From the NCBI GenBank assembly GCA_016283195.1, contig JAEEML010000167.1, positions 688 to 64,687 of the forward strand: a DNA stretch of 64,000 bases. Direction: 5' to 3'. Position numbers and translations under genes: made by a program. Below, piece by piece: positions 1-6,803 of this stretch (positions are counted from its first letter, which is position 1; each line of letters starts with the position of its first letter). The stretch is from Deltaproteobacteria bacterium. GTDB taxonomy: Bacteria > JAEEML01. The notes beneath the pieces were generated by a model. It was not told the DNA's origin, searched no databases, and worked only from the letters and a program-made list of their open reading frames with translations.

Positions 1-140
1 CTTTTGGTTAGCATGCGGCGCTGCCCGTTTTTATGCGACACTAGTTCTTGACTTTACTCTTTTTTTCTTTTTCGGGGAAAACCTCCGCTACTTTAGTTAT
101 CCATCACCTCACAAAATATATGTAAATTCAATTATATATG

Positions 141-170
141 CCCCTCTCCATTTTTACAAATAGAGAGGGG
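141..170. repeat. 30-bp imperfect palindrome CCCCTCTCCATTTTTACAAATAGAGAGGGG (hairpin element, copy 1)
   Basis: The two arms CCCCTCTC and GAGAGGGG pair, and so do ATTT and AAAT. Near-identical copies occur at 357-385, 4477-4506 and 5644-5675. Confidence 0.7.
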
Positions 171-238
171 CCCCATGTGAAAAACAGGCTCTAATGGCAG
201 TGGTGCGGTGGGGCGGCTGCCCGGCCTGGGCTTGGTGG

Positions 239-301
239 CTATTTGCCTTCGATGGTGGCGACCTCTTCGGGGGTTAGGGCGTAGAGTTGATAGAGCAGGG
301 C
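239..301 (-). pseudogene. Relic of a second Type IIG RM gene 3' end (encodes ...ALLYQLYALTPEEVATIEGK*)
   Basis: The reverse-complement translation matches the C-terminus of the adjacent 1224-aa enzyme (…LVYALYGLTEEEIATIEGK*). The flanking nucleotides ggtggctatttgccttcgatggtggcga (235-262) are near-identical to those at 437-464. No upstream ORF is attached to it. Confidence 0.7.
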
Positions 302-317
302 ATTTATTTGCCAGGGG

Positions 318-385
318 CCCTCACCCCGACAAGTACCGAAAATTATTAGCATCTCGCCCCTCTCCATTTTTACAAATAGAGAGGG
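318..385. repeat. Inverted copy of the ~50-bp repeat unit plus hairpin element copy 2
   Basis: ccctcaccccgacaagtaccgaaaattattagcatctcgcccctctccatttttacaaatagagaggg is the reverse complement of the unit that repeats in tandem at 4495-4665. Confidence 0.7.
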
Positions 386-441
386 CTCATCTATGTGAAT
401 TTATATGTGTTTCTAAAGTATCATGAGCTCTGGCGGGGTGG

Positions 442-3400
442 TTATTTGCCTTCGATGGTGGCGATCTCCTCCTCTGTCAGCCCGTAGAGCGCATAAACCA
501 GCCGGTCTATCTCCTGCTCAAGTGCGGAGGTGTCAGCTTTGGGGTCGGCTTTCTTGGCGGCGAGAATTTGGTCAACAATGTTGATGATATTTTTTTCTGT
601 GATTTCTGGAACAACTTTGGGAAGAGGAATGGCAAGCAATGGTTCTTTGTCAACTTGATAGTTTTTTCCTTGCATTTTCCCTTTGTTTTTCAGCCAGAAA
701 GCAACAAGTTTTGAGTTGAGAAGTCCTGTAAGAAATTTCATATTCCAGCGTGATGTCTGAATGACATTCACTGCCATCATAACGTAAGTTGCAGATTCAC
801 AATAAACAAATGTTGGTACAATACATTTTCTAACCGATAATATTTTTGCCCCATTTTTAAAGAATTTTTCATCACGAGCCCAATGCAAATGATAATATTC
901 GATTCTTCCAATTCGATTTTCTCGCCGTTGCTCCATTATTTCTTTATATTTCATTAAGTGATTTTTGAGATTCGGAGCATCGTCTTTCCAATTTGATTTT
1001 GTTATATAGAGAATACATTTATCATTATGTTCATTGAGAAAATAACGTTCCATTTGATAAGGCTCGTATAGCGGTTTTATATATTTTTTTTCGGCAGAAT
1101 CTAGGTTAATAAATTTGTTCTCATCTACAATAAATACGCCTTCACCAATTTCTGCAGACGAATTTCTTAAAAGTTTGATATTGCGAGAATTTACGACATC
1201 AGGATTTGGTACAATTCCTTGTGCAACTTCATCTTCAGTAAGATATATTTTGTCATTCGCTATTTTGTCAAAAATAGATTCGTTATCACTAAATGTTAGA
1301 AGTTTTTCCTGAAAGTTTCCTCGTATTATTTCTGGATTCGAATATTTTGTTTTTGGGGCACTTCGCTTTTCAAGCAGTGCAAACATATCTTCTTTTACTG
1401 AATCAGCTAGTAATACTCTATGATCAAAGAAGTATCCATCCTCTTTATTGTTGCGCTCAAAAAGCATTATCATTGTTTGGATGTCAGCGTTTTCAAAAAT
1501 CATATAGGTATTAAAATCGACCAGTTGCTTGATTTTTGTATCCTCAATAACCTTTATACGCATAAGTTTTGCACCAGCGCTTGTTGTCCAATTATTTTGA
1601 GCTATGAAGCAAAGCAAACCATTTTTGTGGGTTAAATCTATTCCTTGACAGGCAAAACCGTACCATAAATCCATTTTGCCAATATAGTATGGACTTAATT
1701 CTCTAAAACCATTAAAAGCGGACCTGTTTGCATATTCTTTAATATATGGAGGATTTCCAATCACTACATCAAATCCCAGAAATTTACCATTATTATCCAA
1801 AAGTTCCGGAAACTCGATCATCCACTCAAATGAGTTTTTATAAATATCATCGGTAAAAACGCGTTTGTTATGCTCTTCGTCAAAGAGGTCAAGCTGTGCT
1901 GTTTGGTGAATTTCACCTTTTAAGCGCTCAATTTGTTTGTTGACTTCTTTTTTATTCTCTTTGTTGTTCTCATTCTTGTATTTTTTAACTGCCGCCTTGT
2001 AATCTTTAATAATATCAGCTGTTTTTTGCGGATTGCCTTTTTGCAAAATCGAGTTTCCAACTTCCACGCTATATTTGCTTATAAGGCTGTTGCCGCATTT
2101 AATATTTATATCAATATTCGGTAATGTTTCCAGCTCCTTATAGCTGCTTTCTTTGGTGTAATAGGCGTTTTTTAGTAGCTCAATCCAGAGGCGCAAGCGG
2201 CAGATATAAACACTGTTGGGGTTTATATCCACGCCAAAGAGGCAGTTTTCAATGATAGTTAGCTTTTCTTTAAAGATAGTCTCTTGGAAGCGCTGTAATG
2301 TGCTGTTTGGCTTCCCATCGCTTTCGATGCGATAAGTTATTTGTTGGTTTTTTTCATCGAGCATTATGAGTTCATCGCCGTCGATTTCTATTTTCAGCTC
2401 TCTCTTGGAAATGAAATTTCCTGCGCTATCGCAGAGCAGGCCAAGGTAGGATTTTAAATAGAGCATTCTATTTAAAACAGAGACTAAAAAGTGGCCGGAA
2501 CCAACAGCCGGGTCACAGATTTTCAGCGAATTGAAAACGCTATTTGCCGCTTCAAGAGCCTCTTTTAAATCTGTGGCACCATCACCATCTAAGTGCCGAT
2601 TGAGTCTTACTCGCAACTCTTCAATATCTTTAGCTTTCCACTTGTATTGCTCATTGAATTTGCTAACTACCGCCCGATCAATCGCCTCTTTGGCCATATA
2701 AGAAGTTATAAAGCCGGGAGTGAAGAAAGATCCATCTTTATAGCCGTTTATGCGCTCAAAAATGAGACCCATGACCGAGGCATTAATGAGCGTTTTGTTA
2801 TCGCTGGCGATATCCTCTTTCTTCTCGCTGGCAAAGTTGTAGGCATCCAAAAAAGCCATGATGTAATCTAAAAGCTTTATTTGTGGCGGAACATTTTCAG
2901 CGTTATTCTTCCGCAAAACGCTTTTTTGATAGAGAGTTATATCTTCGTTGCAAATGCTTTGGATGCTTACGTGGTATTTTAGCTCTTCCTGTGATTTTTC
3001 AAAAAGCGAGCTATTGAGATACGGCACATTCTCATAACCGGCGTCACGATTCTCTTTTTGCCCTAAAACTTTAAAGAAAAGGTCGTTTAGTTTTCTAAAA
3101 CTATCAACACTTTTACTGGTAAAAAACTGGTAGTTTTTATCGTGATTATGGTAAGTTAGCTGTTGTGCTTCTACCAATTTTATGAATAGTAGGCGGTTGA
3201 CCCAAGTTAGTACCAGGCTAAGCGCAACCTCTTCTCGCTTTTGCTCGTCTCTCAGTTCTTCAAAATCGTCCAGAGCCGAAAGCGCCTGCTTCCATAGCGA
3301 ATTTTCCAGCTCATAGTTGAATTTGATGAGCTTTTTTTGCCCGTCTTTTACTTGCTTTAGGCCCATTATGTAGAGGAGCTCGGCGTAAAAATCCTCATCC

Positions 3401-4116
3401 AGGCTGTTGTTATCATTCTTAAATGGTTTATCGAGAAGTGTTTCCGGCGAAAAATAGTGATATAGTGCTATGAGGTCGTTTTGATTCTCTGGCCCGTAAC
3501 TATTGTAAATATCCTTTAGATTACAGTAAGTAAAGCTGAGTTGCTCCTTTATGCGTTCTATAAAAGGCGGAGCTATTTTTTTATAAAAATAATCGCTTGT
3601 TTGGTCGGTAGTTCGGCCGCAATTAAAATCTTCAAAGTCTTTCCTGAATTCCTTGTCCTCTTTGATGAATCTTAGAATTTCTGTTGCATCAAAGATAAAC
3701 CATTCTTCCCAGTTAGAAATAATGAGCTGCTTAATGCGATCCTGCTGTTTGTTAAAATACTGCTGGCAAAAATAGAGTAGTATTTCACAGAGAGCTTTTT
3801 TATTAAGCTCTTCTTTGGTGACCATTTCATTGGTGTTGCGAACTGTCTTAAACTCAAATAAAATACGCTGCTTATCATCTTGTGCGATGTACAAATCCAT
3901 GCGTTCTTTATTTAACTGAAAAAGGTGATCTTGGTAGAGAGTTTCAAAGAGTTTTTGTCCCAGGTTTTTTATCTGTTCTTCGTTATCACTTTTCTCGTCA
4001 TATTGATTCCAGACCTGTCTAAATGTCTGTTCAAATTTATCCCATTTTTCTTTTGGAATTGCTTGGTTGCTGAAGGCAATATTGCGCTTTTGCTGGTAGC
4101 TATATTCCTTCATCAC
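442..4116 (-). CDS. Type IIG restriction-modification enzyme: N-terminal PD-(D/E)xK-like nuclease region, gamma-class N6-adenine DNA methyltransferase, C-terminal target-recognition region
   Basis: 1224 aa. SAM-binding motif I DPAVGSGHFL and catalytic motif IV VIGNPPY are present. N-terminal D…EFK nuclease-like signature. The C-terminus resembles Eco57I/MmeI-type TRDs. An SD-like gaggtgg precedes the ATG. The gene is visibly AT-richer than its neighbours. Confidence 0.8.
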   Translation of the reverse strand: MMKEYSYQQKRNIAFSNQAIPKEKWDKFEQTFRQVWNQYDEKSDNEEQIKNLGQKLFETLYQDHLFQLNKERMDLYIAQDDKQRILFEFKTVRNTNEMVTKEELNKKALCEILLYFCQQYFNKQQDRIKQLIISNWEEWFIFDATEILRFIKEDKEFRKDFEDFNCGRTTDQTSDYFYKKIAPPFIERIKEQLSFTYCNLKDIYNSYGPENQNDLIALYHYFSPETLLDKPFKNDNNSLDEDFYAELLYIMGLKQVKDGQKKLIKFNYELENSLWKQALSALDDFEELRDEQKREEVALSLVLTWVNRLLFIKLVEAQQLTYHNHDKNYQFFTSKSVDSFRKLNDLFFKVLGQKENRDAGYENVPYLNSSLFEKSQEELKYHVSIQSICNEDITLYQKSVLRKNNAENVPPQIKLLDYIMAFLDAYNFASEKKEDIASDNKTLINASVMGLIFERINGYKDGSFFTPGFITSYMAKEAIDRAVVSKFNEQYKWKAKDIEELRVRLNRHLDGDGATDLKEALEAANSVFNSLKICDPAVGSGHFLVSVLNRMLYLKSYLGLLCDSAGNFISKRELKIEIDGDELIMLDEKNQQITYRIESDGKPNSTLQRFQETIFKEKLTIIENCLFGVDINPNSVYICRLRLWIELLKNAYYTKESSYKELETLPNIDINIKCGNSLISKYSVEVGNSILQKGNPQKTADIIKDYKAAVKKYKNENNKENKKEVNKQIERLKGEIHQTAQLDLFDEEHNKRVFTDDIYKNSFEWMIEFPELLDNNGKFLGFDVVIGNPPYIKEYANRSAFNGFRELSPYYIGKMDLWYGFACQGIDLTHKNGLLCFIAQNNWTTSAGAKLMRIKVIEDTKIKQLVDFNTYMIFENADIQTMIMLFERNNKEDGYFFDHRVLLADSVKEDMFALLEKRSAPKTKYSNPEIIRGNFQEKLLTFSDNESIFDKIANDKIYLTEDEVAQGIVPNPDVVNSRNIKLLRNSSAEIGEGVFIVDENKFINLDSAEKKYIKPLYEPYQMERYFLNEHNDKCILYITKSNWKDDAPNLKNHLMKYKEIMEQRRENRIGRIEYYHLHWARDEKFFKNGAKILSVRKCIVPTFVYCESATYVMMAVNVIQTSRWNMKFLTGLLNSKLVAFWLKNKGKMQGKNYQVDKEPLLAIPLPKVVPEITEKNIINIVDQILAAKKADPKADTSALEQEIDRLVYALYGLTEEEIATIEGK

Positions 4117-4196
4117 GCCACCTCGCTCGCGCTAGCAGCGCAATTTTTAAGCTCAAATTTTCTGGAATAATTGCTTAAATTTCTTGAAAAAAACTC

Positions 4197-4295
<99 letters not shown>

Positions 4296-4476
4296 GGGTG
4301 AACAGATTCATTGATTTAGCTCCATCTAACAAAATTAATGTTGCCAGCTAACCCATCGCGGACCAGCCATGCCAAACTGAGCCGGAACCCTAGCAGGTTT
4401 TTTGCCACTTTGGAATTACTTTTTTGTAATAACTAGCTGGTATCACGCCATGTAAAAAAATGCCTTCCAGAGGAGC

Positions 4477-4506
4477 CCCTCTCTATTTGTAAAAATGGAG
4501 AGGGGC
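4477..4506. repeat. Hairpin palindrome copy 3 (CCCCTCTCTATTTGTAAAAATGGAGAGGGG), inverted relative to copies 1 and 2
   Basis: Direct sequence match to the reverse complement of 141-170. Confidence 0.7.
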
Positions 4507-4665
4507 AAGAAGCTAATAAAATCCACTACTTGTCGGGGTGAGGGAAGGAAAAAATGGAGAGGGGCAAGAAGCTAATAAAATCCACTACTTGTCGGGGTGA
4601 GGGAAAATGGAGAGGGGCGAGATGCTAATAAAATCCAGTACTTGTCGTGGTGAGGGCGGTAAAAA
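4495..4665. repeat. Tandem array of three 53-59-bp direct repeats (atggagaggggcaagaagctaataaaatccactacttgtcggggtgaggg…)
   Basis: Units lie at 4495-4544, 4554-4603 and 4607-4656, and the third is diverged. Each unit contains a GGGGCAAG…CTTGtCGGGG stem-loop. The array is contiguous, without spacers. Confidence 0.85.
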
Positions 4666-4724
4666 TAGCGGCGAGAAGCTTGCGGAGATAGATGTTAATG
4701 CTGAAACTATTAATGTTTTGGCAC

Positions 4725-5342
4725 TTATTCTTTGCTGAGATTACCGAATTTGAAGGTGAAGCCAAGAGTGACACCCGGATAGCCAATATCAAAATTCATG
4801 CCGACATATTTTGAAAAGTTCCAGTAAGCGCCAACGCTTATATCAAAAGAAAAGACCACACCACCAATATACGGAAGAATACCAACGCCAAAAAGAGAGC
4901 GGATGTAAAGAGTGCATTTATCCGTGGGATAAAAGGAGTAACGAAAACCGATTAAAGCATCTACCATGTAAGGATTATCAAGGACCCCTCCAAAAGCCTG
5001 ATAGGGCATATTGAAATTGGCATAGGAGGCGATTTCCAGATCAAAACTGTCATTTAAGGGGGAAAAGCCCTTGGGTACAATCGGGATACCGAAGCGCAAA
5101 CCGGTATATAGCGTTCCACCGTAGGTTATACCACCAATGATGTCCAAATTTAAAGGCCGGCGCTGCTTGGCACTATTCTTTAAAAATAAGTTGCTGTCAG
5201 AAGCAGCAGCCGTGTTCTCGGCGCCGGAACTGCTTTCGGTGCTAACGTTGGCATCAGCGGCAACGTCGTCTTCTTCTGCATGAAGTGGGGCCGCGGAAAT
5301 CATTGTGGCGGCAAACAACATCGTCATCAGGTACTTTCTCAT
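4725..5342 (-). CDS. Small outer-membrane beta-barrel protein (OmpW/OmpA-like fold family), secreted
   Basis: Signal peptide MRKYLMTMLFAATMISAAPLHA. Residues alternate between hydrophobic and polar, rich in Gly and aromatics. The C-terminus is aromatic (…FTFKFGNLSKE). Size 205 aa. Confidence 0.5.
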   Translation of the reverse strand: MRKYLMTMLFAATMISAAPLHAEEDDVAADANVSTESSSGAENTAAASDSNLFLKNSAKQRRPLNLDIIGGITYGGTLYTGLRFGIPIVPKGFSPLNDSFDLEIASYANFNMPYQAFGGVLDNPYMVDALIGFRYSFYPTDKCTLYIRSLFGVGILPYIGGVVFSFDISVGAYWNFSKYVGMNFDIGYPGVTLGFTFKFGNLSKE

Positions 5343-5643
5343 TTAATTTCTCCTTAGTGTATAATACACCTCTATTGGTGCAAAATTATTAGAAAATTTT
5401 GAATTTATGGATTGTTTAAAACTTGAATATGTGCTAAGATCAAATAAAGCAACTGAACTGAACTTCATGCACCTACCCTTAAAAGACAAACAAAAACAAA
5501 GGAAGGGTAGCACGTCTATATATAGATGTCAAGGAGAAAATATGGCGGCTGCGAGAATGGCTTAACTGCGCCACTATCTTGCTTAATATTACCAATAATA
5601 GTAAATCATAATTTGCAAAATATCCATATATATTCAATATGTT

Positions 5644-5675
5644 CCCCCTCTCTATTTACAAAAATGGAGAGGGGG
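5644..5675. repeat. Hairpin palindrome copy 4 plus a partial unit (ctagggggtgagg)
   Basis: ccccctctctatttacaaaaatggagaggggg matches the element at 4477-4506. Confidence 0.7.
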
Positions 5676-5689
5676 CTAGGGGGTGAGGT

Positions 5690-6286
5690 TTAGTCCCTGA
5701 CGCAACGCACGAATAAGGCGCAATCCTTGCCGCAGTAGCAGTTTGCGTACGCATAGTCATTGTCTAAGCACAGGGCGTATGTATCGGAGCTACTGTACTC
5801 CGTGGACGACCAGAAGTAGGCGTCGTAACCTAAATTTTGGTAATTGTCGCCGTAGTAGCCGCCAGCGGGTAGGGCGCCAAAGCCAAAATCATCACCGCCT
5901 TGATAGGGGTAATTAATCCAAGCTGGGCTATTTGCTATGAGAGCTAGAAATGTTGATTCACTTCTTTTAAAAAATCCAGCTATTTTCAGCAATTCTTCAA
6001 AATCTTCTTTGCTCGGTAAACGCCAGTTACTTGGACAGGCTGTTTGCGCCGCATCCCATGTATATGAATAGCCATATTCATCATCATATTCACTGTTACC
6101 ATCGGCAGAAAAGTAATCAGTTCCCTTAGTGCCATTGGCATAGCGTAGATTTTCTGCCAGCCACTCTTTATTACCGATTTTTATAGTCTTATAAGTGACA
6201 TTTATGCCACCGCGATTATCAGTGAGTGAACCAAAGGATTGTTTTATAAAACTGCAATTACTATTTAGCCAGTCTACATCATAAAT
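5690..6286 (-). pseudogene. N-terminally truncated Fibrobacter-succinogenes-major-paralogous-domain (TIGR02145-like) gene
   Basis: The frame translates to …VTYKTIKIGNKEWLAENLRY…YSYTWDAAQTACPSNWRLPSKEDFEELL…YFWSSTEYSS…FVRCVRD*. The frame is open from a stop at 6287-6289 and has no ATG or signal peptide. The ORF track reports only the last 100 aa, from a TTG. Confidence 0.6.
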
Positions 6287-6420
6287 TCAGACAGGTGAAC
6301 CACTTGTACGCTGATTTCAGATTTGATTTTCACTGCAGATAGCTACTGTAGTGAAAGGTGAAACGGGAAACGGGATCTTTGGGTTCGGCCCTTAAAGCAA
6401 GCGATTTTATGTGCTGATGG

Positions 6421-6639
6421 TTAGTCTCTTACGCAACGTACCGAAAACCAGCCACTTTTGTGGTTAGGATCGGCGGGGTCGCAATTGCGAAAGTAACCAA
6501 GGTCGGGATAGTAAACGTGCTCTAATTCCAAGGTATAGTACCACTCGAGACTATCTTCTTTCTCGAACTTGGTAGAAGACCAGAAAATGGCATAAAATCC
6601 GAAACTGTCAGAACTATAATTGTCGAAGCGTTTGTTTTT
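6421..6639 (-). pseudogene. Second FISUMP-type C-terminal gene fragment (…YAIFWSSTKFEKEDSLEWYYTLELEH…GWFSVRCVRD*)
   Basis: A 72-codon frame bounded by stops. Its C-terminus and 3' flank (ttagtctcttacgcaacg) parallel those of the 5690 fragment (ttagtccctgacgcaacg). Confidence 0.55.
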
Positions 6640-6803
6640 TTAAGCCTGTGCCGGGGAATGGTATGCCCTAATCGGCTCGGAAAAGCCAAAAATAATGCTT
6701 GCCAAATTGCGCGAAATTGTGCTAAAAGGCGCCGCAGTTTGCGTCCTTCCTTTGTGAAGGTTTTTGGCCCACCGATAGGCCCCGCTAAAGTTTAGTTTTT
6801 ATT

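Follow-up and report, generated by a model that had tools for sequence, protein, structure and literature searches.

A stranded gene tail beside a mosaic Type IIG restriction–modification gene as a possible footprint of turnover at a repeat-rich locus

Directly downstream of an intact restriction–modification (RM) gene in the window (the whole 64,000-nt stretch of DNA analysed), a short segment on the same strand resembles the last codons of that gene. The locus therefore raises the question of whether this orphan tail is truly related to the gene beside it and, if so, what kind of event left it there. The initial annotation had placed the orphan tail at 235-301, which was correct within a few bases, and had the intact gene ending at 442, as the open reading frame (ORF) also indicates. 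The two tails and the spacers that follow them are positioned as follows:

442..4116, minus strand: resident intact Type IIG RM gene, 1224 aa (ORF, Pfam)
386..441, minus strand: spacer downstream of the resident gene, 56 nt, 41% GC (alignment)
239..307, minus strand: orphan relic, the 3′ end of a lost Type IIG RM gene (sequence and codons, family-tail HMM)
171..238, minus strand: spacer downstream of the relic, 68 nt, 66% GC (alignment to the resident flank)

From the stop of the resident gene to the start of the relic there are 134 nt, and the left edge of the window lies only 238 nt from the relic. The 22 codons of the relic (242-307, minus strand) translate as INALLYQLYALTPEEVATIEGK and end in a TAG stop at 239-241, while the C-terminus of the resident protein reads IDRLVYALYGLTEEEIATIEGK and ends in TAA.

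The Pfam domains and invariant motifs of the resident protein identify it as a single-chain Type IIG RM enzyme. Two domains, DUF7149 (1.8e-54) and DUF7814 (2.8e-57), were found in the N-terminal part, together with matches to Eco57I (9.5e-34) and N6_Mtase (7e-9) and a TaqI_C match at residues 1082-1164 (26.7 bits vs. a cutoff of 26.5). Invariant in a 40-sequence alignment were D74/E88/K90, DPAVGSGHF (535-543), and GNPPY (787-791); the first three residues are compatible with a PD-(D/E)XK motif, with no nuclease family or structure matched directly. The family counts more than 7,800 database proteins, of which the nearest is 46% identical; among solved structures, sequence similarity points to two adenine methylases, CamA and M.BseCI, which align to residues 738-1211. 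By sequence, the protein combines a gamma-class N6-adenine methylase, with an AdoMet-binding and an NPPY catalytic motif, and a C-terminal recognition domain in one chain. Its earlier description as MmeI/Eco57I-like holds in the broad sense, given the Eco57I, N6_Mtase, and TaqI_C matches, but not in the sense of the strict MmeI family, as MmeI_Mtase scored 24.4 bits, below its cutoff of 27, no Pfam match was found to the MmeI N-terminal or TRD families, and no MmeI structure was retrieved by sequence. We also noted a perfect (TTGC)17.8 tetranucleotide repeat at 4225-4295, 109 nt upstream of the RM start codon, which lies outside the RM reading frame (in-frame stop at 4132-4134) and is a candidate for phase variation acting through the promoter or leader.

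The nucleotide alignment of the two tails that the initial annotation had suggested gave 76% identity over 70 nt (229-298 vs. 432-501), and a 32-nt core shared by both tails reached E=5e-9 in blastn. Over the coding sequence and stop codon, 49 of 69 positions match, and the final 20 coding nucleotides show no difference at all (P=0.00025 under random placement). At the protein level, 15 of 22 residues are identical; the last 20 comprise 14 identical and 2 conservative positions, making the earlier count of 20 similar positions out of 20 an overstatement. For a more sensitive comparison, a profile hidden Markov model (HMM) was built from the C-terminal tails of 118 database homologues, with the window gene excluded, and searched against every stop-to-stop segment in all six frames of the 64-kb window. 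The relic was detected at 28.4 bits (E=1.2e-7) and the resident tail at 64.7 bits, with the next-best segment at 3.8 bits (E=5.8). When run on unrelated control loci totalling 1.34 Mb, the same profile matched nothing at E<=0.01.

These values bear directly on the simplest objection, namely that the relic is a chance translation of repeat DNA without true homology. The position of the relic lends this some appeal, as it adjoins a repeat element (E2, described below) and is contained in a 42-aa ORF whose start falls within that element. However, the profile that detects the relic was drawn from unrelated homologues and found nothing comparable elsewhere in the 64 kb, and the matching part, 242-307, falls outside the repeat at 318-385. 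We consider chance translation ruled out, its probability being negligible.

The family has a near-universal C-terminus, I-D-x-L-V-Y-x-L-Y-G-L-T-x-E-E-I, against which the two tails can be placed. While the relic shares 15 of 22 residues with the resident tail, it shares at most 13 of 22 with any of the 118 homologues, and a threonine at position 18 (the ATIEGK ending), seen in 2% of the family, is common to both tails. The two tails are specifically related to each other. In the relic, homology to the family ends at 307-310 and so covers the last 22-23 codons only, and a tblastn search with 121 family proteins found no further pieces of a second family gene in the 64-kb window. Significant family homology (tail HMM) is thus combined with absence of the remainder of the gene (tblastn), as in a gene remnant, and the relic is a dead remnant with no function of its own.

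Whether this remnant drifted from the resident tail or once ended a different gene can be read from the distribution of the differences. The 19 differences in 66 nt are clumped in codons that vary within the family, with three codons changed at all three positions (P=0.003), again at variable positions of the family, and five of the seven differing relic residues (Q7, P13, V16, N2, and A3) are used by other family members. In a drift simulation of 5000 trials, each placing 19 random substitutions on the resident tail, a family-profile score equal to or above that of the relic was reached in only 0.02%, and 47% gained a stop codon. The clustering of the differences and the failure of simulated drift indicate that the relic diverged within a working gene whose body is now gone, and this favours derivation from a different, once-functional Type IIG gene over a drifted copy of the resident tail. 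The relic and the resident would then represent two alleles or paralogues of one lineage, with the identical 20-nt run at their 3′ ends possibly being a conversion or crossover tract. The earlier view that the relic is not a simple recent duplication of the present allele is well supported by these results.

The sequence beyond the stop codons had been described as the same 3′ flank in both copies, which is true in part. The first 10 nt after the stop agree at 8 positions, and each spacer is followed by an identical 30-nt imperfect palindrome (about 140-170 and 356-385), but the spacers between differ strongly, with 39 matches in 75 gapped columns. The palindrome common to both flanks marks them as carrying a member of a local repeat family rather than a simple duplicated flank. 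Along the whole unit, identity is 100% in the palindrome, 71-76% in the tail, and about 50% with gaps in the spacer (66% vs. 41% GC). Simple tandem duplication followed by drift was rejected, as the drift simulation fails and identity is too uneven across the unit.

A duplication linked to an insertion is a related alternative, in which a segment of ~134 nt carrying E2 would have entered the 3′ end of the gene, duplicating a target of ~70 nt whose downstream copy then drifted. The tail copies do directly flank a short insert with a repeat element, and long target duplications at RM loci are documented (PMC2853133). Against this stand the rarity with which random substitutions retained the family motif (0.02% with 19 substitutions) and the codon-clustered pattern of the differences, together with the marked difference in GC content between spacers that are barely alignable. 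The repeated unit, moreover, consists of tail, spacer, and repeat and not of the tail alone. We regard an insertion-linked duplication as improbable for the window.

The repeat family itself has a layout of ~68 nt, comprising a box CCCTCACCCC, an arm, and the 30-nt imperfect palindrome CCCCTCTCCATTTTTACAAATAGAGAGGG(G). Six copies were identified, all within 99-5702 (5.6 kb) and in a nested inverted arrangement around the gene, with none in the remaining 58 kb of the window:

101..170, plus strand: copy E1, diverged, with box CCATCACCTC, an AT-rich arm, and the 30-nt palindrome at about 140-170 (nhmmer, 53.8 bits)
318..385, plus strand: copy E2, 68 nt, between the resident stop and the relic (75.6 bits)
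4476..4544, minus strand: copy E3, inverted partner of E2, upstream of the RM gene (81.8 bits)
4549..4658, minus strand: two tandem partial copies, E3′ (4549-4604) and E3″ (4603-4658), lacking half of the palindrome (nhmmer, TRF)
5645..5688, minus strand: copy E4, short-armed, pairing in inverted orientation with E1 and closing the 5.6-kb region on its outer side (44.5 bits)

The RM gene is bracketed by the inner inverted repeat (318-385 / 4477-4544; 68 nt, 90% complementary), and the whole 5.6-kb region is enclosed by the outer inverted pair, E1/E4. The tandem copies E3′ and E3″ were reported by TRF with a period of 59 and 3.1 copies, and E1, located downstream of the relic, folds as a hairpin. 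No target-site duplication was seen around the E2/E3 pair, the flanks reading TTGCCAGGGG / unit / AAGGAAAAAA.

Several known element types were considered for these repeats. Hairpin folding is predicted for the palindromes; as intrinsic terminators or known RNAs they were rejected, given that no Rfam match was obtained at E<=1 in 1-6800 and no terminator-like site in 1-700. The palindrome also had no exact match in viral contigs, and a REP- or MITE-like nature is one candidate for the family. An integron attC-like array was likewise discarded, as the repeats occur in both orientations and no core sites were noted on reading the sequence. The hexamer TTTAGT occurs at 92-97 and 5689-5694, adjoining the outer ends of E1 and E4; as a target duplication for the 5.6-kb region it was set aside, being offset by 3 nt on the left, too short, and noticed post hoc.

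Two further features accompany the repeat-bounded region. A 205-aa ORF (4725-5342, minus strand) with host-like composition (GC3 0.48), an N-terminus that resembles a signal peptide, and no Pfam match is located between the inner repeats and the outer ones. Fragments of Fib_succ_major (FISUMP) domain genes at 5690-5992 and about 6430-6640, both on the minus strand, resemble remnants of broken pseudogenes; these sit between the repeat-bounded region and a ClC channel gene and suggest a decaying, variable stretch of the genome.

The relic and the repeats meet at the point where the relic is truncated. Homology in the relic stops at 307 and E2 starts at 318, such that the truncation point coincides with the outer end of the repeat, with 10 nt between them. 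We tentatively favour replacement, which we give somewhat less than an even chance, whereby the present gene arrived by recombination and the tail of the old gene was left stranded in the same slot. The slot would first have held an old family gene, with a tail related to that of the resident but distinct from it, a GC-rich spacer, and its own repeat copy, E1. The present gene would then have come in by recombination with its own tail, spacer, and repeat copy, E2, and the body of the old gene would have been lost. On one side, the exchange may have used homology, either in the repeat copies or in upstream sequence, and on the other it would have been an imprecise join of the outer end of E2 to codon −23 of the old gene, which would leave the old tail, its spacer, and E1 stranded directly downstream. 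More generally, the conserved C-terminal tail and the flanking repeats could provide homology for both module and whole-gene exchange at the locus. We infer both this order of events and the status of the old gene as an allele in the same slot. Counted against replacement were the lack of a target-site duplication for E2/E3, the outcome of searches for a second strain or related genome with the locus, which found none, the closeness of the relic to the left edge of the window, and the need for more than one exchange event (see below). Homology-facilitated illegitimate recombination during the uptake of foreign DNA, reportedly described by de Vries and Wackernagel in 2002, would offer a conjectural route to this outcome, in that a homologous anchor combined with an illegitimate join would replace a gene body and leave a stub of the old gene, as is present here.

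The same present-day structure would also arise from the decay of a tandem paralogue, with nothing having been replaced. Two complete family genes would have stood in tandem on the minus strand, the resident upstream and each with a repeat copy downstream, and a deletion running from just after E2 to codon −23 would have removed most of the downstream gene. Such a history also predicts that the relic diverged under selection, as its differences indicate. It would, however, place the deletion endpoint by chance no more than 10 nt from E2's outer end, and both the 20-nt run of identity and the rare ATIEGK ending are as compatible with alleles or conversion as with paralogues. We view paralogue decay, against which nothing further counts, as the main rival to replacement, though on the unlikely side.

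Independent of the relic, the resident gene carries signs of recombination of its own. Third-position GC content (GC3) is 0.44 in codons 1-770, 0.255 in codons 771-1170, 0.63 in the last 54 codons, and about 0.67 (0.667) in the last 45, compared to ~0.5 in host core genes. Identity was compared along the gene with two groups of homologues, group A (P0001-P0014) and group B (P0092-P0116), and together with GC3 defines two modules in the 3′ part of the gene:

607..1806, minus strand: AT-rich swapped-in module, codons 771-1170, closest to group A (GC3, homologue affinity)
445..606, minus strand: GC-rich C-terminal tail module, codons 1171-1224, closest to group B (GC3, homologue affinity)
Codons 236-445: 41% identity to group A, 48% to group B
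Codons 446-770: 47% to group A, 57% to group B
Codons 771-910: 54% to group A, 34% to group B
Codons 911-1170: 53% to group A, 18% to group B
Tail codons 1171-1224: 53% to group A, 68% to group B

Composition and homologue affinity switch together near codons 770 and 1170, indicating that a recognition module was swapped into a backbone of the group B type. The swapped stretch covers the end of the methylase domain and the TaqI_C-type recognition domain, and its boundaries lie near the NPPY region on one side and at the start of the conserved tail on the other. The conserved tail has acted as a recombination boundary in this lineage; the proposal of the initial annotation that the tail serves as a recombination site is independently supported by this break in GC3 and affinity in the mosaic resident. 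As the resident tail goes with the backbone rather than with the module that came in, the relic is not tied to the module swap, and as this tail is GC-rich like the relic while the neighbouring recognition module is not, two or more separate exchanges are required.

We then looked for related loci elsewhere. For the RM protein, with either of its starts, and likewise for the 205-aa gene next to it and the ClC channel, exact-protein look-ups found no record, and the 23-nt string common to both tails was not matched exactly by any metagenome or viral contig. The 42-aa relic ORF and a 203-aa C-terminal product of the RM gene were found only on one 1138-nt JGI/NCBI metagenome contig (L001), which corresponds to window positions 151-1288 with a single mismatch (L001 position 223, window position 1066). 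On the contig this mismatch is a TAC>TAA change, Y1017* in the RM gene, which is called there as two pieces; the RM gene may have been inactivated in a sister strain, or the change may be a sequencing error, with the former fitting ongoing turnover. A scan of genome contigs with the ClC neighbour gave, among the matches listed, relatives of at most 55% identity, and on one contig (L082), where the ClC protein is 88% identical, synteny is lost about 115 nt upstream of the ClC gene.

Beyond the window itself, 80 metagenome loci with a family member were surveyed for an orphan second tail no further than 1.5 kb from an intact gene and on its strand. Three such loci were identified and are listed here with a further locus holding two complete genes:

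L113, 7741-8598: orphan tail ~650 nt downstream, with a Gp49-like and HTH pair between; copies 90% identical over 97 nt
L114, 3671-4479: orphan tail ~700 nt downstream, with two small ORFs between; copies 70% identical over 161 nt
L118, 3989-5565: orphan tail upstream, with two small ORFs without Pfam matches between; copies 91% identical over 217 nt, including 95 nt of 3′ flank
L100, 99-7720: two tandem full-length family genes

The orphan tails at L113, L114, and L118 place the window relic as one instance of a recurring footprint, and the same loci bear on the alternatives to replacement. Full-length family genes in tandem, as paralogue decay presupposes, do exist (L100, in segments of 1243 and 1251 aa), and the L118 orphan, a tail with 95 nt of flank that precedes a complete gene, is most simply explained as what remains of a decayed neighbour on the upstream side. 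An insertion-linked duplication, in turn, finds a parallel in L113 and L114, where small cassettes lie between the tail of the intact gene and the orphan tail. A broader and decidedly speculative reading is that the tail of DUF7149-type Type IIG genes (the last ~20-60 codons) is a recurrent landing or exchange site. Modules, whole genes, or cassettes, such as toxin-antitoxin-like pairs and repeats, would enter via the tail, carrying or regenerating a copy of it; the enzyme would stay intact and the orphan tail would remain as a countable footprint, with four independent examples in the window, L113, L114, and L118. We consider this reading doubtful.

A use for the relic may also be envisaged, in that it could be retained as a silent cassette, a recombination partner for switching the C-terminus or the specificity of the enzyme, comparable to truncated hsdS genes. 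The 20-nt identical 3′ run could be a conversion tract, and the perfect (TTGC)17.8 tract upstream indicates that the locus may be phase-variable in another way. The relic, however, is in direct and not inverted orientation, holds no recognition-domain sequence (tail HMM, tblastn), and has no evident recombinase nearby, the only ORFs of at least 150 aa in the first 6.8 kb being the RM gene and the 205-aa gene. Were the two copies to recombine, only 203 bp would be lost and the ATIEGK end would stay the same. Given its direct orientation, its lack of a recognition domain, and no evident invertase, the relic cannot drive switching, and we consider a silent cassette very improbable.

The locus provides a small, clean example of turnover at a defence locus, in which exchange takes place at a short conserved tail and at local repeats and a past event is recorded by the tail left stranded. 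Should orphan tails be as frequent as 3/80, counting them would be a cheap gauge of Type IIG turnover in metagenomes, and they could also flag genes with a recently swapped specificity module.

Among known systems, the truncated silent hsdS genes of Type I 'epigenetic invertons' (PMC7672463) resemble the present case in having a partial gene fragment beside an intact RM gene with a conserved repeat in common. The two differ in that our relic is direct, carries no recognition domain, has no evident invertase nearby, and neighbours a Type IIG gene. Insertion with long target duplication at RM loci (Nobusato et al. 2000, cited in PMC2853133) is, as far as it is summarised there, similar in that direct copies of more than 30 bp flank inserted DNA, a description that L113 and L114 match with small cassettes as the insert. 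In the window, by contrast, the copies are 71-76% identical, diverged under selection, and flank 134 nt of non-coding DNA, the repeated unit contains a separate repeat element, and the insert is not an RM unit.

The movement of recognition domains via recombination in flanking conserved sequence has been described from comparisons of strains of one species (PMC3077401, PMC3467074). The resident module at codons 771-1170 is similar in being of different origin with boundaries in conserved stretches, whereas the case for it here comes from one sequence, through its composition and the conflict between best homologues along it. The account of RM loci by Furuta, Abe and Kobayashi 2010 (PMC2853133) covers imperfect inverted repeats on either side of RM genes, RM substitution at a locus, allelic recognition-domain diversity in Type IIG genes, and insertion with long target duplication. 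Like their units, the resident is a single-gene RM unit within long imperfect inverted repeats (68 nt at 90% here, compared to 60/65 in Xanthomonas oryzae), with composition unlike the host and a recognition module of different origin inside an otherwise conserved gene; unlike them, it has no short target duplication and is accompanied by six repeat copies in 5.6 kb with a nested outer pair. In the part of their account used here, there is no mention of a stranded 3′ gene fragment as a footprint, of a nested family of local repeats, or of orphan tails recurring in this enzyme family. Overall, the case fits the known picture of RM locus shuffling, and the kind of event that it records is known in outline.
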